From an uncultured Gammaproteobacteria bacterium (GTDB lineage Bacteria > Cyanobacteriota > Vampirovibrionia > LMEP-6097), in the NCBI GenBank assembly GCA_964512985.1, contig CAZELI010000002.1, forward strand, positions 11,252 through 75,251: a stretch of 64,000 nt of DNA. Direction: 5' to 3'. A program made the translations under genes and the position numbers. Position 1 is the stretch's first letter, and the number at the start of each line of letters is the position of its first letter. Shown here piece by piece: positions 9,005 through 55,040 of the stretch. The notes under the pieces were generated by a model that saw only the letters and a list, made by a program, of their open reading frames with translations, was not told the origin of the DNA and searched no databases.

Positions 9005-9958
9005 GTGAGTCTTTGAATGATGTCATTAATACAAGAAATTTTTAATTTTATTTTTGCGCAACCAGGCATAGTTCAAATACTTCTCTTTACTCAAGTATTG
9101 ATTTTGATTATATTCTTACCAAGAATTCTTGTTCTATTAGTTCAATTATTTATAAAGAAAAAGAAGGTTAAAACTATAGAGTTATCGATGACCAGAGATC
9201 AGTTTATAACTTCTTTGAAAAATAAATTGTTTGAAACTAATATAAATTTTGAAAAGATTAATGCAACTAAATTTACTCTCTATGACATTTTTTCTACATT
9301 ATTTATTTTGCCAATTTTGCCATTGAAGTTATTTCTACTAATCAAGAATTTATTTTATAAGTCCAAGAGTAGTACTGAAATTGATATTGAAAAATATCTT
9401 AGAGATTTAAGTATGAAAGGATCATTTCATCTGATCTTTTTAGATAATCCAAATAGAGAGTTTGATTTTGAAAGCTATTTTACTAACAGTGATATTACTA
9501 AATATCCTTTAGCGGGAAAAATAGAGGATAACAATATAAGTCTTTATCTCACACAAAAATATCCAAATGAAAATGTTTATTTTCAACAAGATGCAAAAGC
9601 TTTTTTATATGAAATTAGAATTAAGGAGAACAGTGATCGAAATTTAGTTCTTGAATTATATAAGGAAAAATTTTGGTTTATTAGGGATGCTTTTGATATT
9701 TTATATGATAATTATTTGATAGTTATTCCTAAACATTCAACAATTAGTAAGCTAGCTATTCAGCTATTTATACTTCCTTGTTTTTTTTTCTATTGTATTT
9801 TGCAATTCCAAGCCTAAGAATTTTCTCAGTCTTACCATTAGGTTTACTTTTGTTTGATATTTATTCAACCATAAAACAATCTCAGTTAATAATGAAACAA
9901 AGAAAGTTACTAGATGAGACTGTGATCGATTTAATTACAAAATTATCAAAAAATATTT
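9005..9958 (+). mobile_element. 954 bp very AT-rich insertion bounded by the 49 bp direct repeats; no recombinase gene
   Basis: It is flanked by perfect 49 bp repeats. Its composition is visibly more AT-rich than the flanks. It carries only a membrane-protein ORF. Confidence 0.5.
9017..9817 (+). CDS. hypothetical membrane protein inside the insertion; possibly continues to 9960 after a frameshift at a T9 tract
   Basis: 266 aa ORF with hydrophobic segments. A second ORF (9778-9960) overlaps it at a run of nine T (9781-9789) in another frame. Confidence 0.4.
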   Translation: MMSLIQEIFNFIFAQPGIVQILLFTQVLILIIFLPRILVLLVQLFIKKKKVKTIELSMTRDQFITSLKNKLFETNINFEKINATKFTLYDIFSTLFILPILPLKLFLLIKNLFYKSKSSTEIDIEKYLRDLSMKGSFHLIFLDNPNREFDFESYFTNSDITKYPLAGKIEDNNISLYLTQKYPNENVYFQQDAKAFLYEIRIKENSDRNLVLELYKEKFWFIRDAFDILYDNYLIVIPKHSTISKLAIQLFILPCFFFYCILQFQA

Positions 9959-10007
9959 AAAGTATATTCATCCTGATAAGCTTAATGTGGTGATTGTTGG
10001 GCCGTAA
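9959..10007 (+). repeat. right copy of the 49 bp perfect direct repeat
   Basis: Identical to 8956-9004. It ends immediately before the stop codon of the minus-strand gene at 10008. Confidence 0.9.
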
Positions 10008-11762
10008 TTAAGGTGCTAAGTGGCTACCTTTACTAAGTACTATCAGGCTTTTGTCGTCATTAAACTCTCGAGAGTATTGTAAATATGCTTGAATAATTTT
10101 TTGAGGATTAGTACCAGCGCTTAATACTGGTGTGATAACTGAATTTAGTTGATCAAATCGAGGGGGTATAACTTCTTCACGTTTTAGCTTATCGCCTGAT
10201 TTACTTTTTAATATACCATCTGAAGCAAGAACCAAACCTTCAATATTCTTTTTATCAATAAAACAAACAGTAAATTTTGCGGGATTTTGTTTATGCCAAC
10301 CTTGACCTCGATTCACTACCCCTAAATATGATTTTACTGTACCTTCTCCTGGTATACGATCTGCCGAATTCAAAGAATTTTCAATAATCCCATTAGCATT
10401 AAAAGCAGAAGCAATAGTATCTCCAGCTGAAATTAACATCAATCTTTCACCAAGATCAATAGCCAGGGAAACTGTAGTATTTGCTTCTATAAATTCTTCT
10501 TCTTTATTTTGTGATTTTGTTTGAGTTATTCCAACTGTTTCAATTCTAGTGTTTCTTTCAAGTGGCTCAGCTTTAATCGTTGTAGGTGATTTAATAACTG
10601 TCTCTGGGATTATTTCTTCGCATCTAGATTTAATTTGATCAACTGAATCATTTAAAACTTTCATCGCATTTAGAATCGGCTTATAATCATCAATCAAAAA
10701 CGTTTTCGCAAGCTCATCTAAACTCTTATTCTGATAGAATTTCAAAGATTCATTCTCTAGTTTTTTCAAATCAATAGGTGTATAACCAGCTCTTGTTAAT
10801 GTAGTTCCTTCACCCAATTGACTATAGTCAAACTCATTCCTTCTCTGATTATGAATGTCCCTATTTTTAATAACTAATTTCATCGAACAATCACTGAATT
10901 CATCTTTTGCTAAGTTCAACCCAAGATGCTCTAAATATAAATCCTGTAATTTTTTCTTAGCGTCAATACCTGGTTTTAAGAACTGTCGTAAATTACTAGC
11001 TAATAATGTTTGATAACTATTAGCATCAAATAAATTAGAAAATAATTCTTCAACAGTGGAAATATTCAAGCCTGGTTTAGTTTTTTTTACAAATTTAGAA
11101 CCAAGCTTTTCAAAATCAGCAAACTCTAATTCATGATTTTTAACATGATCAATTACCGCATCTGCTGCGATTTTGCCAGTAGATAATTCTCTATCTAAGC
11201 CAGCTCCACTAATGCCATCTGCAACAGCTGCTAATAATACTGGAGCTTTATTAACATTAGCAGGATTTCTCTGATCTAAACCTACACAATAAGTCGCATC
11301 AGAATTATCACTAAACATTCTACGCTTACCAGCTAAACTTTCTCTCCCCACTGTGAAAGGCTGGTCTTCATTAGCTCCTAAATTGATATTTTTTGCGTTA
11401 ATTAAAATTGGATCAGCAATAGTCCTTAGTAAACGATTTGTATCTCTCAAGGCAGTGACAAAATTAATTTTAAATTTGTCATAAATACTTTTAACTCGTT
11501 CATTTTCATTTTGAACAGAATCGGTAGCTAAATTAAAAATTCCAGCTAAGCTCTCTATAAAGTTAGCAACAGATTGATTAATAATTTTGCTAATTTCAGA
11601 AAAGAACCAGGATGCATAGTCATAACTTAATCCAGAACTAGGAATATCTTTTATTTGAATTTCCTGAACAGCAGCTTTTAATTCAGGCTCAGAAAAATTT
11701 GCATTAATTAAAACCTCTTGCCATCTCGGTATTTGATTGCCAGGAATAGTAGACATGGGCAA
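10008..11762 (-). CDS. PP2C-family phosphatase-like protein with an N-terminal extension and a large internal insert
   Basis: PP2C-like motif series: AAVADGISGAG, ISAGDTIASAF, LVLASDGILKS and a C-terminal DDKSLIVLS. About 230 aa lie between the first two motifs. Confidence 0.55.
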   Translation of the reverse strand: MPMSTIPGNQIPRWQEVLINANFSEPELKAAVQEIQIKDIPSSGLSYDYASWFFSEISKIINQSVANFIESLAGIFNLATDSVQNENERVKSIYDKFKINFVTALRDTNRLLRTIADPILINAKNINLGANEDQPFTVGRESLAGKRRMFSDNSDATYCVGLDQRNPANVNKAPVLLAAVADGISGAGLDRELSTGKIAADAVIDHVKNHELEFADFEKLGSKFVKKTKPGLNISTVEELFSNLFDANSYQTLLASNLRQFLKPGIDAKKKLQDLYLEHLGLNLAKDEFSDCSMKLVIKNRDIHNQRRNEFDYSQLGEGTTLTRAGYTPIDLKKLENESLKFYQNKSLDELAKTFLIDDYKPILNAMKVLNDSVDQIKSRCEEIIPETVIKSPTTIKAEPLERNTRIETVGITQTKSQNKEEEFIEANTTVSLAIDLGERLMLISAGDTIASAFNANGIIENSLNSADRIPGEGTVKSYLGVVNRGQGWHKQNPAKFTVCFIDKKNIEGLVLASDGILKSKSGDKLKREEVIPPRFDQLNSVITPVLSAGTNPQKIIQAYLQYSREFNDDKSLIVLSKGSHLAP

Positions 11763-24863: not shown

Positions 24864-25986
24864 ATGTCCGATCTTTCTGAACAAACCTATGATTTAAATG
24901 AACTTAAGCTTCGTTACTCTTCACTAAAGGAGTATCTTTGACCAAGAAGAGGTCAAAAAAGAGATAGCAGATTTAGAAGCTGAGATGTCTGCGCCGGGGT
25001 TTTGGGATGATACCAATGCTGCACAAGCCAAATCACAAACTCTTGCACAAAAGAAAAATCAATTAGGACAATTTCAAAGTTGGAACAAGCGTCTACAAGA
25101 TATCTTGGATATGGAAGAGTTTCAATCCTCTTCTTCTGATAATGAAGAGAAGCTGCAATATCAAGCAATGATTTTAGATGAGTATTTGTCTTTAAGTAAA
25201 GAATTTAAGGTTTTTGAATTTCAAAAAATGATGTCAGGTGACTATGATAAGTCTGATGCCATAGTTTCTATTAACGCAGGTGCCGGTGGTACGGACGCGC
25301 AGGACTGGGCGGAAATGCTGCTTCGGATGTATACTCGTTGGGCAGAGAATTACCGAAGTTATACTGTTGAATTGTTAGAACGTTCTGATGGAGAGGAAGC
25401 TGGGATTAAATCAGCTACTATAAAGGTGACTGGTCCTTATGCTTATGGATATTTAAGTGCAGAGAAAGGTGTGCATCGTTTAGTACGTAAATCTCCGTTT
25501 AAATCTTCTGCTGACTCTAGGCAAACGAGCTTTGCTGGTTTAGAAGTTACGCCAGTAGTAGCTGATATGTCTAAGATCATTGAGCTTGAGGAAAAAGATC
25601 TTGAGATAGATACAATGCGTTCTGGTGGTGCTGGTGGACAAAACGTTAATAAAGTAGAAACGGCAGTGCGTGTTAAACATATACCAAGCGGCATAGTGGT
25701 GAAATGTACTCAGCAGCGTAGTCAGATGCAGAATAAAGCTAGTGCTTTAGACCTTATTCGTTCCAAGCTACTTGCAATTAAAGAAGCTGAGCAAAAAGCC
25801 AAAATTATTGAGCTTAAAGGGGAATCGGTATCTGCTTCTTGGGGAAACGCTATAAGATCCTATGTTCTAGATGAAGGTAGGGTGAAAGATGTTCGTACTA
25901 AATATGAGACTCGTGATGTGGAATCTGTTCTAAATGGCGATATTGATGCTTTTATAGAGGCATATTTAAGACAAGAAGCGAAGTAA
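24864..25986 (+). CDS. prfB: peptide chain release factor 2, requires programmed +1 frameshift at 24936-24942
   Basis: ATG at 24864 opens a 25-codon frame ending ...AAG GAG TAT CTT TGA C. The +1 frame continues [24 protein letters not shown] into the long ORF, which carries [17 protein letters not shown] (GGQ). An SD-like AGGAG lies upstream of CTT TGA C. Confidence 0.9.
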
Positions 25987-26021
25987 AGTGTCCAAGTGGC
26001 TTAGTGACAGGGTGGCTGAGT
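25987..26021. repeat. single arm of the octamer-repeat element, just after the prfB stop
   Basis: agtgtccaagtggcttagtgacagggtggctgagt shows an 8 nt periodic AGTGnCnn pattern like the arms at 39299, 45732 and 53079. Confidence 0.45.
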
Positions 26022-38197: not shown

Positions 38198-38671
38198 ACT
38201 ACTAATAAACTCTTCGATTGAAATTTTGGTACTTACAAACCTCAACCCTAAGCCATCCCAGGTATAAACTAATTGTTGAGTATTGCCAGCATCTACCCAG
38301 CAATAGACCTTAATCTCACTGGCATCAATAGTGCGCTCTAGAATTAGTTCAAAACTTGGATCTGCTGGTTCAAAGCGATAACTCTGAACATCTGATTCTA
38401 AGAAGGATTGAATACCGCTGGTGAAAGCTTCAAGTTCATTGTATGGTTCAATCGATAATGCAAATTTACCTATCTCACCAATGGTTCCTAAAGCAGTAAT
38501 TGCCTGGCGGTTTTTAGAGGAGAATTTATAAGTCTCTTGCCCCATATGAAAAACTATTTCATAATTTAACCAAGTAGCCTTATCAATAGAAACTCTTTCA
38601 AGTAAATTAAACTCTAGGCTTACTTTAGAATTAGTATCATTATTGTCGTTGGTACAATGAAGTGTGGGCAT
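38183..38671 (-). CDS. hypothetical protein downstream of lpxB
   Basis: 162 aa ORF. Its start codon overlaps the lpxB stop (38671) and its 3' end overlaps polA by 15 nt. Confidence 0.4.
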   Translation of the reverse strand: MPTLHCTNDNNDTNSKVSLEFNLLERVSIDKATWLNYEIVFHMGQETYKFSSKNRQAITALGTIGEIGKFALSIEPYNELEAFTSGIQSFLESDVQSYRFEPADPSFELILERTIDASEIKVYCWVDAGNTQQLVYTWDGLGLRFVSTKISIEEFISSLITV

Positions 38672-39921
38672 TATTTCAAAATCTCTTCCGCTACTAATCT
38701 TGCAGTATTGTATCCGCTAAGCTTACTCTTTAATTCAGACAAATCAGTTTTAATTTTCTGGTAATAAGCACTATAAGCTCCGTTCTTTTCAAACCAAGAC
38801 TCTGTTTCTGTTACAAAGTTTTTAACGTTAGCCTCATACTGTAAAAATTCTTTAATTATATACTTACCTGCAATAATATTAGCTAAGCCAGCCATAGTGA
38901 TAGTTCTGAAACATAGATAGAGAAGGTAATTGAATAAATTAGACCTGTAACTAAGGAAGTAAGGAGTAGTATAAAGTGCGGCTTCTAGTGTTACTGTTCC
39001 TGAGCAAAGCCAGAGTGCATCAGCGGCTGAGAGTAATTTATGATTAGAACTGAGCATATCTTGTGATTCTAATATTTCGATATGATGACTTTGTTTTCCT
39101 TCAAGTGCCATATTTAAAGGTGTTTTAAGCCCACATTGCTCTAGAAGTGATTTACTTATCGTTGGAGCTTTAGCTAGGATAAATCTAAAATTAATTTCTG
39201 GGTTTCTTTTAATTAACTGCTCTGATGCTTGAATCATTAGTGGAAGCATTTCTTTGATTTCCGCTTTGCGACTGCCAGGAAATAATCCTATTAATGTTTG
39301 AGTGGCTGAGTGGCTGGGTGCTTGGGTGACTGTATTGATTGATAGCCCTCTTCTATATTGGATTTCACCAAATTGCCTCAGAAATTCTTCTTTATTGATT
39401 GGTTTAGCAAGCGAGTCTAAGACTGGGTTTCCTACGTATTTGTATGGAATGCCAGATTTCTGATAGAGCTTTTCTTCTAAGGGTAAAGTACAAAGAACTT
39501 TATCTATATATTTCTTGATGTTATTGATACGCCAAGGTCTAGATGCCCAGATTTGGGGTGCGATAAATTCTATGATTTTAATTTCAGAAGATTGTTTTTT
39601 AATTGCTTGAGCGAGTTGTAAATTAAATCCACCATAATCTACAAGTAAGACTATATCTGGCTTCCAGTTTATAATTTCTGTCGCTATTTCTTGTTTCAGT
39701 GAAAGTATGGTAGAGATATTGGCGATAACTTCACTGATACCAGAGAAACCATAATCTCGGTAATCTTTAATTACTTTCACTCCTAGTTCTTCTAGTATCT
39801 CTGAGCCAAAGGCTCTAATCTCTGCTTCTGGACAGAGTTTGAAGATTTCTATTACAACTCTAGAAGCATGACTCTCGCCGCTTAACTCCCCGCATGAAAT
39901 AAATACTTTTGGTTTAGTCAT
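38671..39921 (-). CDS. lpxB: lipid-A-disaccharide synthase
   Basis: 416 aa with an N-terminal ISCGELSGESHASRVV motif and GT19 family architecture. It contains an octamer-repeat insertion (VTQAPSHSATQT). Confidence 0.85.
   Translation of the reverse strand: MTKPKVFISCGELSGESHASRVVIEIFKLCPEAEIRAFGSEILEELGVKVIKDYRDYGFSGISEVIANISTILSLKQEIATEIINWKPDIVLLVDYGGFNLQLAQAIKKQSSEIKIIEFIAPQIWASRPWRINNIKKYIDKVLCTLPLEEKLYQKSGIPYKYVGNPVLDSLAKPINKEEFLRQFGEIQYRRGLSINTVTQAPSHSATQTLIGLFPGSRKAEIKEMLPLMIQASEQLIKRNPEINFRFILAKAPTISKSLLEQCGLKTPLNMALEGKQSHHIEILESQDMLSSNHKLLSAADALWLCSGTVTLEAALYTTPYFLSYRSNLFNYLLYLCFRTITMAGLANIIAGKYIIKEFLQYEANVKNFVTETESWFEKNGAYSAYYQKIKTDLSELKSKLSGYNTARLVAEEILK
39299..39331. repeat. single-arm octamer-repeat element inside lpxB
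   Basis: tgagtggc tgagtggc tgggtgct tgggtgac t. Read on the gene strand it encodes VTQAPSHSATQT. Confidence 0.6.
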
Positions 39922-45264: not shown

Positions 45265-45726
45265 TTAAGATGTAAGTGCTTCTTTAGCTCTGGGTCTTTG
45301 AATTTCACCTAATAATTTATCGACTGAGCTGCTAACTACTTCTGCTATAAGATTATCAATATTCGATCTAATCTTGTCTGACTCTCTATTCAATCCTTCT
45401 AGACTAGTATTTAACCTATCTTGAAGCTTAATCCTATTATCATCAAGAAATTTTTGCTTGTTGACATTGGCTACTGTTAAAGCTTCGGAGACTAAACTAT
45501 GAGCCTGCTCTTTTGCTTTAGTAAGAATATTACTAGGGTTCTTAGTTAGAATTTCATCTTGAATTTGCTTTTGAAGAGACTTACTCTTCTGAAGGTTTTC
45601 TGCAATGAAATTTTCTCGCTCATTAATCACTCTGGCTAATGGATCAAAGAAGCAAAGCTTCATCAAACCCAGAAATACAATGAAGCTGAGTGTGAATAAT
45701 ACTGCGGTAAAGTCTAAATTAACCAT
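45265..45726 (-). CDS. atpG: F-type ATP synthase b-prime subunit
   Basis: 153 aa with an N-terminal TM helix then PLARVINERENFIAENL, typical of b/b-prime. Position is between c and b. Confidence 0.7.
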   Translation of the reverse strand: MVNLDFTAVLFTLSFIVFLGLMKLCFFDPLARVINERENFIAENLQKSKSLQKQIQDEILTKNPSNILTKAKEQAHSLVSEALTVANVNKQKFLDDNRIKLQDRLNTSLEGLNRESDKIRSNIDNLIAEVVSSSVDKLLGEIQRPRAKEALTS

Positions 45727-45731
45727 AATAA

Positions 45732-45799
45732 AGTGTCTAAGTGTCTGAGTGTCTGGGTGGATATGTAGCAGGCACTCACAACCCAGTCACTCAGACACT
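45732..45799. repeat. complete octamer-repeat palindromic element between atpE and the b-prime gene
   Basis: agtgtcta agtgtctg agtgtctg ggtgg - loop - cactcaca acccagtc actcagac act. The arms are largely complementary (about 17 of 19 in the best register, by eye). Confidence 0.8.
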
Positions 45800-45806
45800 G
45801 CTTAAT

Positions 45807-50704: not shown

Positions 50705-50763
50705 AATTAGTATTGTAGCATTTTATTGACTTTCTTAGGTATTTTATAGTTCTTTACATTTAT

Positions 50764-50846
50764 AACTACTATAGAATATATAGCCTAACTACTATAAATT
50801 ATATAGTGCAACTACTATAAAAAATATGGTATAACTACTATATATA
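50764..50846 (+). repeat. four phased 23 bp direct repeats directly upstream of the fic start codon
   Basis: aactactata starts at 50764, 50787, 50810 and 50833, an exact 23 bp spacing. The units also share downstream A/T-rich similarity (aactactata-r-aa-w-atata). Confidence 0.75.
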
Positions 50847-52322
50847 ATGGTTAACCTTAAGGAACTAGAACGAGATGCTAAAGTTTGGCTCAATAAGGAG
50901 CTCAAGAAATCTAGAATTGTATTTGAGAAGCAAACAATACCAAGTGAAATATATAACTATCTTAAAACTAAATCTTTAATTGCTGATCTTACAAAACAAT
51001 ATGTTTTTATTAAATCAGAATATGATAATGAAATAAATGCTTTTCGTAATAATTTCTGGTTGATAATTTTTCAATATCTAAATTTAGCCTTTGATAATAA
51101 TTGGTATTTAACTGGTCATTATGCTTATAAATTTATGGTGGAAGATTTTAGTCTAGCAAGTAAACAGTTAACAATATCTACGCAAGCTAAATCCAATCGT
51201 ATGCTTAGTTTACTTGATGGTGTTCAGATACTTGCTAGCTATGATAAAGATTTTGAAAGTAAGCCTTTAATTAGTAAAAGTTTCTTTGATGAAAAGATTG
51301 AATTATTAAAACCAGAATATTTATTAATCAATTCTAGTAAAAATGATTACCATAATTATAAATCTGAATTAATATCTATTATTAAAAGTTCTGAACGTGA
51401 TGAAGCTTATATAGTGAATTACTTTACAGAAAACAGTTCACCAGTTTTACTTACAAGATTAATAGGAGCACTTAGAGATTTAGAAGACTTTACTCTTAGG
51501 ATTGAGCTTGAAGAGTTGCTTAAGCTCTCTGGCACACAGATTAAGATAGAGAGTCCTTTTGATAGTTTTATTCTACTAGAATCAAGTGAAAGACCTGCCT
51601 ATCTTGCTAGGTTTGAGATATCGATGACTAAAGCGATAGAAACCCTATCTAAGCTGAAAAAACCAAAGCGTTTAAGTAAGAGATTTACTGTTGAAGATCT
51701 CGATGCGATAGTTATCGATGAAACCTACCATAGTTTAACCATAGAGGGTTATACCGTAACTCGTGCTTTAATTGAATTTTTACAAAACGAAGAATCCTTA
51801 AATAATGCTAGTGAACTACGAGATCAACTGGCTGCTAAGGGTTTTATGAATGCTCTTGCTTATATTCGTAAATTGATTACGGCTAAATTTGTTATTCATG
51901 AAAATCTAGCAAAAAAACTCTTCGAAGAACTCTGGAAACCTAGTATTAATGCTGGTTCTATTAATACTAAGTTTGATATTTATCGTAAACATATGGTGGC
52001 TATTAAAGGCGCGCAGTATGTGCCACCTAGTCATGAGAAAGTACCTTATATGATAGATGAGGTTTTTGATTATGCTCGTAAGATTACTAATGGATTTGAG
52101 CTGGCAATATTCTTGCATTATTTTTATGTGGGAGTACATCCTCACGCTGACGGTAATGGACGTATTTCTCGTTTCTTGATGAACCTTGCTTTGATCCAGG
52201 ATAAATATCATTGGCTTACTATTCCGTCTGAAGATCGTAAGAATTATTTTGGTGCTTTAGAACGCTCTCAGTTAGAGGATGATATTAGTTATTTTGCGGA
52301 GTATATTGTTAGTCAATATTAA
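50847..52322 (+). CDS. fic: Fic-domain protein with an internal inhibitory-helix motif
   Basis: The active-site motif HPHADGNGRISRF follows the HxFx(D/E)GNGRxxR pattern. An upstream SLTIEG matches the (S/T)xxxE(G/N) auto-inhibition motif. A large N-terminal region of about 290 aa is unassigned. Confidence 0.8.
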   Translation: MVNLKELERDAKVWLNKELKKSRIVFEKQTIPSEIYNYLKTKSLIADLTKQYVFIKSEYDNEINAFRNNFWLIIFQYLNLAFDNNWYLTGHYAYKFMVEDFSLASKQLTISTQAKSNRMLSLLDGVQILASYDKDFESKPLISKSFFDEKIELLKPEYLLINSSKNDYHNYKSELISIIKSSERDEAYIVNYFTENSSPVLLTRLIGALRDLEDFTLRIELEELLKLSGTQIKIESPFDSFILLESSERPAYLARFEISMTKAIETLSKLKKPKRLSKRFTVEDLDAIVIDETYHSLTIEGYTVTRALIEFLQNEESLNNASELRDQLAAKGFMNALAYIRKLITAKFVIHENLAKKLFEELWKPSINAGSINTKFDIYRKHMVAIKGAQYVPPSHEKVPYMIDEVFDYARKITNGFELAIFLHYFYVGVHPHADGNGRISRFLMNLALIQDKYHWLTIPSEDRKNYFGALERSQLEDDISYFAEYIVSQY

Positions 52323-52352: not shown

Positions 52353-55040
52353 ATGAACGAATATAACCCTAAATTAATTGAAGCTAAATGGCAAAAACTC
52401 TGGGAAGAGTCTGGTATCTATAAGTTTGACGATAAACCTGATAATGCTAAGCGTTTTTATTCACTAGTAATGTTTCCTTATCCTTCTGGGAATTTGCATA
52501 TGGGGCATATGCGAGTTTATACAGTTTCGGATTTGATTTCCCGTTATAAAACGATGCAAGGTTATAAGGTACTTAATCCTATGGGCTTTGATGCTTTTGG
52601 TTTGCCAGCAGAGAACGCTGCTATCGAGCGTGGTGTACATCCAGGCAAGTGGACTGACTCAAACATCGCTTATATGCGTGATGAGCAGCTTAAACGCATG
52701 GGTACTAGCTATGACTGGTCGCGTGAGGTGATTTCTTGTCACGAAGATTACTATAAATGGACTCAATATTTATTTCTCAAGTTATACGAGAAGGGATTAG
52801 CCTATCAGAAAGAAGCGCCAGTGAACTGGTGTCCAGAATGTAACACGGTACTTGCTAATGAGCAGGTAGAAGATGGCATGTGCTGGCGCCATACTAATAC
52901 TCCCGTAAATAAACGCATGATGAAGCAATGGTTCTTGCGCATCACTGATTATGCAGAAGAATTACTTAATGACCTAGATAAGTTAGAACACTGGCCTGAA
53001 AGCGTTAAGACTATGCAACGTAATTGGATAGGGCGTAGTGTCGGTGCTGAAATTGATTTTGAAATTTGTCAAAGTGGCGGAGTGTCTGAGTGTCTGAGCG
53101 ACAGAGTAACTGACCCAGCCACCCAGTCACCCAGCCACTCAATTACAGTTTATACTACTAGACCTGATACGGTTTATGGAGTGACTTATATGGTGCTTGC
53201 ACCAGAACATAAATTAGTTAAAGGACTTACTACTAAGGATCGCCTTGCAGAAGTAGAAACATATATTAAAGAGTCTTCTAGTAAGTCTGAGATAGAGCGT
53301 ACTGCTGAAGGTCGCAAGAAGACTGGAGTCTTTACTGGCGCTTATTGTATTAATCCTTATACTGAAGAAAAAATTCCAGTATGGATAGCAGATTATGCTT
53401 TAGTAGATTACGGTACTGGTGCGGTGATGGCAGTGCCTGCACATGATGATAGAGATTGGGAGTTTGCAAAGGAATTTGGATTGCCGGTAAGGGAGGTAAT
53501 TAGAGTGACCGAGTGTCCGAGTGTCCGAGTGTCTGAAAGTTCAGTCACTCAGTCACCCAGCCACTCAGTCACTAAAAATGCTTACACTGGTCCTGGAACA
53601 ATGATCAACAGCCAACAGTTTAATGGTCTGGATAATGAAACTGCTAAGCAGAAGATCGTAAAATATGGCTCAGAGCAAGGCTTTGCGCGAGAGACTGTTA
53701 AATATAGATTACGCGATTGGTTGATTAGTCGTCAGAGATATTGGGGTTGTCCGATTCCATTAGTAGAAGCTGAATCAGGCGAGATAGTAGCTGTCCCTTA
53801 TGAATCGCTTCCAGTGAAGCTTCCATTAGATATAGACTTTAGCCTTGCTAAGTCTGAAGGTGGTTCTATATTGGCTAATAAACCTGATTGGTATAATGTC
53901 ACTCTTCCTGATGGACGTAAGGCTAAGCGCATCACTGATACTATGGATACTTTCATGTGTTCATCATGGTATTTCTTGCGTTATCCTGATGCTCATAATT
54001 TAGAGAAGCCATTTGCTAAAGATCAAGTGTTTCCTGTTGATCAATATGTGGGTGGTATTGAACATGCGATCTTACATCTCTTGTATTCTAGGTTTTTTAC
54101 TAAGGCATTACGTGATTGTGGGATGCTAGATTTCTCGGAACCTTTTACTAGATTGCTTTCTCAAGGGATGGTAGTTAAGTATTCAGAGAAAGAAAACAAG
54201 ATAGTGAAGATGTCTAAATCTCGCGGGAATGTTGTGGGTACTAATGAGTTCTTTGATGAATATGGTGCAGATGCAGCTAGATTGTTTATATTATTCGCTG
54301 CTCCAGTAGAAGCTGAAGTAGAGTGGGTTGATGAAGGAGCCCAAGGGCAATATAGATTTATTAATAGAGTTTGGAGGATGTATGCTGCGTTGAGTTCGGC
54401 ATTTAATACGACCTCATCTAGTGAAGAAATCGACTTTAATGCTCTTTCTCCAGCTAATCAAGAGATTCTCCGTATTTTTCATTTTACGCTTAAGTCTATT
54501 ACTGAGGATCTTAGTCCTGAGCGTAATGGCTTTAATACTGCGATTGCTCGTATGTTTGAGTTTGTGAATGCAATGTACAAGTATATGAACGCAAAGGGCT
54601 TTGATGTAGGTAAAGGTATATTAAATGATGAAGATAGTTTAGTAGTGAAACATGTTCTGGTGAATTTTATTAAAACACTTGCACCGTTCACGCCACACTT
54701 AGCAGAGGAACTATGGCAAATATATAGTGTCCGATTGACTGAGAGTCTGAGTGACCGGAACCCAGTCACCCAGTCACCTAGTCACTTAGTCACTAATTCT
54801 GTACACTTGCAACGTTGGCCTATATATAATCCTAATTATTTAGAATCTAAGACTGTTAATTTAGTATTGCAAATCAAAGGTAAAAAAGTAGATGTTATAG
54901 AAATAGCTAAAGACCTCTCAGAGAAAGACCTTGAGCAATTAGCTATGGATAATGAGAAGATGAAGAAACGTTTAGAAGGATTGGATATTAAGAAGGTTAT
55001 TATAGTACCAAATAAATTAGTTAATGTGGTAGCAGGTTAA
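52353..55040 (+). CDS. leuS: leucyl-tRNA synthetase carrying three in-frame repeat-element insertions
   Basis: 895 aa with HMGH ([11 protein letters not shown]) and KMSKS motifs plus a CP1 editing domain (TTRPDT). Confidence 0.95.
53079..53140. repeat. octamer-repeat palindromic element inside leuS, copy 1
   Basis: ggagtgtc tgagtgtc tgagcgac agagtaac tgacccag ccacccag tcacccag ccactc. It encodes [21 protein letters not shown] just before the conserved TVYTTRPDT. Confidence 0.8.
53503..53573. repeat. octamer-repeat palindromic element inside leuS, copy 2
   Basis: gagtgacc gagtgtcc gagtgtcc gagtgtct gaaagttca gtcactca gtcaccca gccactca gtcact. It encodes [23 protein letters not shown]. Confidence 0.8.
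54726..54794. repeat. octamer-repeat palindromic element inside leuS, copy 3
   Basis: agtgtccgattgactgagagtctgagtgaccggaacccagtcacccagtcacctagtcacttagtcact encodes [23 protein letters not shown]. Confidence 0.8.

Follow-up and report, generated by a model that had tools for sequence, protein, structure and literature searches.

The window analysed here, 64,000 nt of contig CAZELI010000002.1 (positions 11,252 to 75,251 of the forward strand) from assembly GCA_964512985.1, belongs to an uncultured bacterium of the Vampirovibrionia (Cyanobacteriota) and carries a leuS gene into which copies of a short hairpin element are translated (Table 1). In this element an 8-nt unit is repeated in two inverted arrays, (YGRGTGNC)n and (GNCACYCR)n, with a short loop between them. 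Copies are 50-140 nt long and end in WAAAGTGNC ... GNCACTWW, and solitary single arms also belong to the family. It is a lineage-specific dispersed repeat, and we show that the depletion of stop codons from its translated copies is specific to the reading frame of the host gene.

The leuS product aligns end to end with Thermus LeuS (2v0c/1h3n), with all three element-encoded stretches falling into alignment gaps, and these stretches correspond to loops that vary in length across 30 orthologues. Under random placement of 17 coding copies, three in one 2.7 kb gene would be expected with a Poisson P of ~2e-6. In each of the three copies both unused frames are blocked, leaving the leuS frame as the sole open one. 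An earlier note, made from the letters of the window, had proposed that coding copies are purged of the TGA codons that the octamer arm generates. Its arithmetic holds, as three consecutive TGA-bearing octamers block all three frames. In copy 1, the TGAs it had placed at offsets p, p+8 and p+24 are seen at 53087, 53095 and 53111, all out of frame, and the in-frame junction codons are GGA (53079) and AGA (53103). Copy 2, in frame in leuS, does have four GAGTG(A/T)CY octamers in its left arm, with three junctions reading CC·GAG (the dot marks the boundary between units) and the fourth CT·GAA; its right arm consists of four inverted TCAGYCAC octamers, which can be summarised as (TCAGTCAC/CCAGCCAC)x4. 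The in-frame junction codons of this copy are AGA (53502) and CGA (53526). The note had read all of its CGAs as the result of a stop purge, which suits the one at 53526 but over-reads those at 53510 and 53518: both are out of frame, so no stop needed removal there. It had also counted a single remaining TGA in copy 2; out of frame is correct, but two are present, at 53506 (inside GTGACC, frame 1) and 53534 (frame 2). For copy 3, it had given TGAs at q and q+8 only, with the gene using the third frame. The leuS frame is indeed open, with CGA (54732) and CGG (54756) as in-frame junction codons, but there are four out-of-frame TGAs (54736, 54740, 54748 and 54752). The statement that the right arm has no stop in any frame fails for the same copy, where TAG occurs out of frame at 54779 and 54787.

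Table 1. The leuS gene and the copies of the octamer element in the window.
Feature	Positions	Strand	Details
leuS coding sequence	52353-55040	+	895 aa, open reading frame, three in-frame element copies
leuS copy 1	53071-53141	+	left arm 53071-53110, right arm 53118-53141; 22 residues encoded
leuS copy 2	53502-53575	+	left arm 53502-53533 (AGAGTGAC CGAGTGTC CGAGTGTC CGAGTGTC), loop 53534-53543 (TGAAAGTTCA), right arm 53544-53575 (GTCACTCA GTCACCCA GCCACTCA GTCACTAA); 24 residues encoded
leuS copy 3	54724-54796	+	left arm 54724-54755, right arm 54757-54796; 23 residues encoded
Single-arm copy in lpxB	39299-39330	-	gene 38671-39921, minus strand; PF02684, 224.6 bits
Non-coding full copy	45730-45801	+	left arm AAAGTGTC TAAGTGTC TGAGTGTC TGGGTGGA, loop, right arm ending CAGACACT
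Single-arm array	25985-26016	+	AAAGTGTC CAAGTGGC TTAGTGAC AGGGTGGC; same as G000:C2:37236-37267

The genome of the window (G000; 2.31 Mb, 36.8% GC, a 76-contig draft, 87% complete) was compared with two congeners, G002, which has the family, and G001 (78% complete), in which a pattern scan found no copies. Arrays were called strictly, as units NGRGTGNC at exact 8-nt spacing with the junction base left free, and the reversed motif served as the control both for this caller and for the pattern scans. G000 contains 34 such arrays, against 0 for the control, at about 27 loci, about 17 of them coding (with hosts confirmed by Pfam) and about 10 intergenic; more than half of its copies are translated. 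Matches to a three-unit pattern number 44 in G000 and 71 in G002, again with a control of 0. Among 401 genomes of the class, the multi-copy family is restricted to G000 and G002, with one to three isolated matches in five other genomes and control counts of zero throughout.

Every unit-junction triplet (NGR) of GAGTG-type arrays was classified, pooling G000 with the G002 loci that were fetched. None of the 15 junctions translated in the host frame is TGA (CGA 6, AGA 4, GGA 2, GGG 2, CGG 1), compared with 19 of 29 (66%) in translated arms out of frame (p=1.5e-5), 49 of 79 (62%) on the untranslated strand of coding copies and 79 of 157 (50%) in intergenic copies. The out-of-frame frequency is not below that of the other classes (p=0.16-0.32; p=0.16 against intergenic copies). 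For the TGN triplet inside the unit, TGA makes up 0/9 in frame, 11/27 (41%) out of frame, 32/71 antisense and 75/159 (47%) in intergenic copies, with no significant difference between out-of-frame and intergenic triplets (p=0.68). Of the 11 translated left arms, nine have a single open frame, that of the host, and the remaining two have two. Orthologous in-frame junctions of G000 and G002 often differ (CGA/GGA, CGA/AGA, CGG/CGA, GGG/AGA), with TGA in neither genome, and out-of-frame TGAs are frequently common to both. Recoding of TGA was considered and is unsupported, as no host gene contains an in-frame TGA.

These counts bear directly on whether TGAs might be removed throughout coding copies after insertion, by selection or by biased repair, rather than from the host frame only. 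leuS copy 2 would be the case in point, with CGA at three consecutive junctions of which one is in frame, and its first junction base, a synonymous site, is C in G000 and G in G002. However, TGA is about as common out of frame in coding copies as it is in intergenic or antisense sequence, both at the junction and inside the unit, the proportion of non-T junction bases is 28% for out-of-frame and 27% for intergenic junctions (p=1.0), and in nine of 11 translated arms stops still block the two frames that the gene does not use. Nor could an essential gene such as leuS tolerate a TGA in its own frame while repair was awaited. The share of junctions reading CC·GA is 47% in the host frame, 17% in the other frames of translated arms and 10% in intergenic copies, the latter two not differing significantly (p=0.33). 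The comparison of coding with intergenic junctions that the earlier note had called for thus finds the same substitutions in intergenic copies, although the orientation bias it had also expected is present. A general purge of the element's TGAs is not supported, and we regard it as very unlikely.

A full element is a near-palindrome, either strand showing a GAGTG-type arm and then a CAC-type arm, so orientation is meaningful for single-arm copies only. All but two of the single-arm copies in genes are read on the CAGNCACY strand (GAGTG strand, 2/14). In intergenic arrays, the proportion of open frames is 29% when the GAGTG strand is read and 85% when the CAC strand is. The share of the GAGTG strand expected from stop content is 25%, which agrees with the 2/14 observed (p=0.54), whereas a 50:50 split is rejected (p=0.013); the orientation bias is real and is explained by stop content. 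In the window, lpxB reads the stop-free CAGNCACY strand of its copy as VTQAPSHSAT, the opposite strand having TGAs at 39299, 39307 and 39327. Among full intergenic elements, nine of 102 frame-by-orientation readings are open and eight of 17 elements have at least one open reading, so a minority of ordinary copies would already pass such a filter. Single arms make up 12/17 of coding and 10/27 of intergenic copies (p=0.06), an excess of the kind that a stop filter would produce.

The earlier note had gone further and given all coding copies a shared orientation and a shared frame, the one yielding VTQ(S/A)PSHS. The orientation bias stands, as described, but this peptide identifies no frame. Because 8 and 3 have no common factor, a perfect octamer array encodes an identical cyclic 8-residue peptide in all three frames, merely shifted. 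(CAGTCACT)n gives QSLSHSVT in every frame and (GAGTGTCT)n gives ECLSV*VS in every frame, while (GAGTGTCC)n gives ECPSVRVS, the peptide of leuS copy 2; the general right-arm peptide is [VADG]-T-Q-[SPTA]-[LP]-[SR]-H-[SP]. The peptide is independent of frame. Counted from the terminal unit, the phases of the host frame are distributed 4:1:2 over seven independent loci, with no significant bias, and a preferred host frame relative to the element end was rejected on these counts.

Residue-level preferences are visible in the host frame. Tryptophan is avoided, with TGG at 0/15 in-frame junctions and at 36/78 non-stop intergenic junctions (p=3e-4), and the in-frame TGN triplets are TGT or TGC, TGG being found in 0/9 as against 31/84 (p=0.027). 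Proline is preferred to leucine: C occupies the variable position in 14 of 22 CYC codons of translated right arms, compared with an intergenic background of 29% (p=0.003). When the variable Y base falls at the other two codon positions, C is found in 21% and 28%, equal to background. The samples behind the Trp and Pro tests are small and partly non-independent, and the Pro signal comes mainly from G000. The recurrent SPSHS is therefore read here as a preference for Pro over Leu and against Trp, which is partly real, and not as a preference for a frame.

We consider it likely that the apparent purge is purifying selection, at or after insertion, on the in-frame positions of a lineage-specific repeat, with no general clean-up. 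One strand of the unit contributes a TGA at the junction, and a second inside the unit when N = A, the other strand being stop-free, and a copy would persist in a gene only where the host frame happens to be free of stops. Single arms in genes would then almost always be read from the strand without stops, no junction or TGN codon in the host frame of full elements would be TGA, and the TGAs of the other two frames would be left untouched. The filter would act mainly at insertion, because an in-frame TGA in leuS could not be carried until repaired, and later substitutions would be constrained only to avoid TGA. A second, weaker filter would act on residues, leaving Arg, Gly or Cys but no Trp among the in-frame codons, with Pro favoured over Leu at CYC. 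Between selection after insertion and frame- or orientation-limited survival, both of which the earlier note had offered, the second fits the data; purging of the element in general does not.

Several points weigh against this selection reading. The 15 in-frame junctions come from about nine independent sites, which is a small sample, and p-values are optimistic, since several copies are common to G000 and G002 by descent and units within an array are non-independent. The G002 regions fetched were those with three-unit matches, so decayed G002 copies are under-sampled, and gene calls were based on open reading frame (ORF) length, Pfam matches and orthologue alignment. leuS copy 2 carries two CGA junctions beyond need, for which frame filtering alone gives no explanation; our guess is that slippage spread a stop-free unit through its left arm.

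At least 13 working genes contain a copy in frame, in a surface loop or a tail. Hosts confirmed by Pfam are LpxB, a solute-binding protein, KdsA, a pyridine-nucleotide disulphide oxidoreductase, HemD and a zinc alcohol dehydrogenase, together with a nucleoside phosphorylase, an amine-oxidase-type flavoprotein and a class IV aminotransferase. In KdsA and HemD (G000:C10:61613-61692 and G000:C14:16153-16176), the last 8-12 residues are encoded by the element, which in KdsA also supplies the stop codon; the KdsA tail is common to G002. At G000:C19:13774-13855, the element forms the linker of one 336-aa open frame, likewise confirmed by Pfam, that joins a type I chorismate mutase (aa 5-119) to a CDP-alcohol phosphatidyltransferase (aa 151-308), which may be a gene fusion made by a read-through element.

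G002 has diverged copies at each of the three leuS sites and in a minimum of five further shared genes, and orthologue alignment found none at the leuS sites in G001 or in any of the other genera examined. G000, G001 and G002 are equidistant on LeuS (83-84% identity), so a gain in the ancestor of G000 and G002 is indistinguishable from a loss in G001. The loop of lpxB that holds an octamer arm in G000 holds in G002 (L184) a heptamer-armed hairpin, (CTAGAAG)3 ... (CCTCCAG)4, also in frame. The arms of this heptamer hairpin would pair better on the antisense strand, via G-T wobble. At the loop of element site 2, the leuS genes of two other genomes, G030 and G024 (L029, L030), have an insert of about 150 residues resembling a GNAT acetyltransferase.

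The retention of several coding copies in both G000 and G002, at about 83% LeuS identity, might be taken to mean that the Ser/Pro/Thr/Gln/His-rich peptides, or hairpins in the mRNA, are kept for a function in host proteins or in regulation, and the residue biases and the persistent folding of coding copies (z from -1.9 to -6.4) could be read in the same way. Such domestication is, in our judgement, highly improbable: G001 and all other genera examined lack the inserts, the inserts diverge between G000 and G002 about as fast as a variable loop would, relatives have unrelated sequence or other repeat families in these loops, and the residue biases are as expected for tolerance in surface loops. 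Mis-assembly or mis-binning of octamer arrays has to be considered for a metagenome-assembled draft in 76 contigs, as repeats are error-prone in short-read assemblies, but diverged copies at the same three leuS sites and in several other genes of the independently assembled G002, and host frames that are all open, leave this explanation with almost no credibility.

The hairpin potential of the family shows no significant dependence on coding status. Folding z-scores range from -1.9 to -22 across copies, and folding energy per nt does not differ significantly between coding (-0.41 kcal/mol) and intergenic copies (-0.47 kcal/mol; p=0.18), on which ground a loss of hairpin potential in coding copies was rejected. 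In well-preserved non-coding copies, variants of one arm are mirrored in the other; an example is G002 L159, of 140 nt and -116.8 kcal/mol. Within the window, leuS copy 2 folds at -33.9 kcal/mol (z = -5.5) and the non-coding full copy, which starts 4 nt upstream of the start of a minus-strand gene (45265-45726), at -34.2 kcal/mol (z = -6.0). No long ORF crosses the single-arm array, the longest frames that span it having 34 and 30 aa. Tandem Repeats Finder gives a period of 8 for all window arrays. A search of the window with Rfam gave no match at gathering thresholds, and a known RNA family was rejected, the best Rfam match to the non-coding copy (E = 0.91) being at chance level; there is no rRNA within the window. 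A separate 23-nt tandem repeat (TATAACTACTATAAAATATATAG, 3.6 copies) lies at 50761-50842, directly upstream of the ORF at 50847-52322.

One copy carries a gene. In G002, a gene of the PF05635 family (23S rRNA intervening-sequence protein) at G002:C5:180292-180609 (120.9 bits, cut-off 33.8) sits exactly between AAAGTGAC TGTGTGAC TGAGGGTC GGAGTGAC and CAGCCACT CACTCACT CTGTCACC CAGTCACTTT. The 510-nt cassette has GRGTGNCY arms, with the unit family and terminal motifs of the gene-less copies, and its right arm encodes the last residues of the PF05635 protein, SQPLTHSVT. It is located between two protein genes, outside rRNA. A profile search found this single PF05635 gene in G002 and none in G000 or G001. 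The flanks of the cassette map to contig C33 of G000, at a site that lacks the 510-nt cassette and is taken up by unrelated CGTC-type hairpins. Several CGTC-type repetitive extragenic palindromic (REP) hairpins are found there, and some 300 nt beyond them G000 carries an insertion of 442 nt compared with G002 (G000:C33:9202-9456 and 9772-10214).

Similar layouts occur elsewhere. A Planctomycetota contig (L099) has (GAGTGCCT)n, a PF05635 gene and (TCAGGCAC)n in succession, and PF05635 genes of two other genera of the class (G023: L177, L182; G029: L178) are enclosed by inverted arrays of octamers that are unrelated in sequence (AAGATGCA..., AAGGCGAT...); the cassette design is therefore general and the arm sequence variable. 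The pattern (CAGNCACY)4 by itself is found in more than 117 contigs of many phyla, including Planctomycetota, Anaerolineae, Bacteroidota and Streptomyces, mostly as solitary tandem arrays. An inverted GTGNC array lies upstream in seven of 90 such contigs and a PF05635 ORF nearby in only one or two. A single cross-phylum hairpin family is not claimed, as most of these matches are plain octamer microsatellites.

The shared arms suggest that the short copies are gene-less derivatives of the PF05635 cassette. As a tentative extension, the octamer hairpins could be non-autonomous copies of a multi-phylum mobile cassette, the sole gene of which encodes a small Avd-like PF05635 protein that binds nucleic acid; they would be copied, guided by microhomology, into unit-like seeds, colonising and repeatedly remodelling the same protein loops and occasionally fusing or extending genes. 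PF05635 proteins are related to the Avd proteins of diversity-generating retroelements. Protein loops would be open to colonisation because the unit has a strand free of stops, from which a Ser/Pro/Thr/Gln/His-rich peptide is read. On the other side, the link from cassette to gene-less copies is made through arm sequence only, and no cargo-bearing copy was found within G000, which is 87% complete.

A transposase of the RAYT (REP-associated tyrosine transposase) or IS200 type was rejected as the mobiliser, since each of the three congeners has PF01797 genes (one in G000, two in G002 and four in the element-free G001) and these are not flanked by the element; the 300-nt flanks of the G000 gene (C1:155286-156293) contain no octamer arrays. 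In this frame of 335 aa, the Y1 transposase domain (PF01797, 49 bits) is N-terminal and is followed by a long C-terminal extension, and the G001 and G002 genes are similar. We found no transposase-bearing parent, the sole gene-bearing copy being the one with PF05635, and no clear target-site duplication when five sites were aligned with those of G001 and G002; inverted repeats are present in the form of the arms.

Growth in situ offers another origin for the coding copies, in which native unit-like seeds would be extended by slippage or microhomology-guided template switching, each step passing an open-frame filter. The G000 array in the amine-oxidase gene ends in 12 nt (ACCCAGCCACTT, TQPL) that the family-free G001 has as well, PL being conserved in other genera, and the added part is exactly 24 nt, or three units. 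The 'empty' leuS site 2 of G001 has AGAGTG at its boundary. An orthologous non-coding locus has four units in G000 (C29:2739) and 11 in G002 (L148), with 24-nt higher-order repeats, and the lpxB loop holds different repeat families in the two genomes. However, copies at more than 25 loci agree in their unit family, in their terminal AAAGTG...CACTWW ends and in the mirroring of arm variants, which argues for copying from a common source. Moreover, the empty sites compared number only about five, matches of 5-6 nt arise easily by chance, and, as the three species are equidistant on LeuS, the seeds in G001 might be relics of lost copies. We think growth in situ rather unlikely as the origin of the coding copies. 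The insertion hints fit microhomology-guided copying plus slippage at a few permissive sites, but such hints are too few to decide.

Short tandemly repeated repetitive (STRR) sequences of heterocystous cyanobacteria are tandem heptamers, e.g. CCCCAGT, that are mostly intergenic. The octamer family shares with them tandem units of 7-8 nt, dispersal over many loci and the cyanobacterial phylum, but its unit has 8 nt instead of seven, its arrays are paired as inverted arms and, in G000, it is mostly translated. The two classes may grade into each other, given the heptamer-armed hairpin in lpxB of G002. The ORF-bearing intervening sequences of 23S rRNA, which sit in helix 25 or 45 and are excised by RNase III, resemble the G002 cassette, in which a long stem of inverted flanks surrounds a small PF05635 gene, a layout repeated in G023, G029 and the Planctomycetota contig; the octamer cassette differs in lying outside rRNA and having tandem-octamer arms, and the copies within genes have no ORF of their own.

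In behaviour, the family is closest to the Rickettsia palindromic elements (RPE), repeats of 100-150 bp that are abundant in intergenic and in protein-coding regions, including the aminoacyl-tRNA synthetase gene pheT (PMC1779305). Both are dispersed, hairpin-forming repeats that are found between genes and in frame in housekeeping genes, are tolerated in loops, have proliferated in particular lineages and have no transposase of their own. The octamer element differs in its length of 50-140 nt, its tandem 8-nt units of variable number, its single arms and its PF05635 cargo form, and its host is Melainabacteria-type and not one of the Rickettsiales; the distinction from RPE is one of length, build and host. 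The Coxiella QMITEs, which have defined terminal inverted repeats plus direct repeats and are linked to the biology of IS1111 (PMC5896051), are less similar. They too are small hairpin repeats that sometimes lie in frame in ORFs or provide a new C-terminus and stop, as here in KdsA and HemD, but for the octamer family neither a clear target-site duplication, at the five sites compared, nor an insertion-sequence parent was found. It is a member of neither group. With REP/REPIN sequences and their RAYTs (PMC3116915, PMC3733652) it has in common short, palindromic, dispersed repeats; unlike them it bears no GTAG or CGTC tag, which in REPs marks one end of a 20-40 bp palindrome, and the Y1 transposase genes are not element-flanked and occur in the element-free G001. 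A separate CGTC-type repeat family is also present in G000. In the literature searched, we came upon neither tandem 7-8-nt hairpin repeats in genes nor PF05635 cassettes of this kind, the only analogues being RPE, QMITEs, REPINs and heptamer direct repeats.

The purging of TGA is thus the expected footprint of purifying selection on a translated repeat and is ordinary in itself. The family nevertheless amounts to a natural experiment, in which one short sequence occurs translated in frame, translated out of frame, antisense to a gene and as non-coding DNA, so that constraints at the level of stops, residues and structure can be separated. It also provides a Melainabacteria case of tandem 7-8-nt hairpin repeats inside genes, and its tie to a PF05635 cassette makes that cassette a testable candidate for making or moving such repeats.

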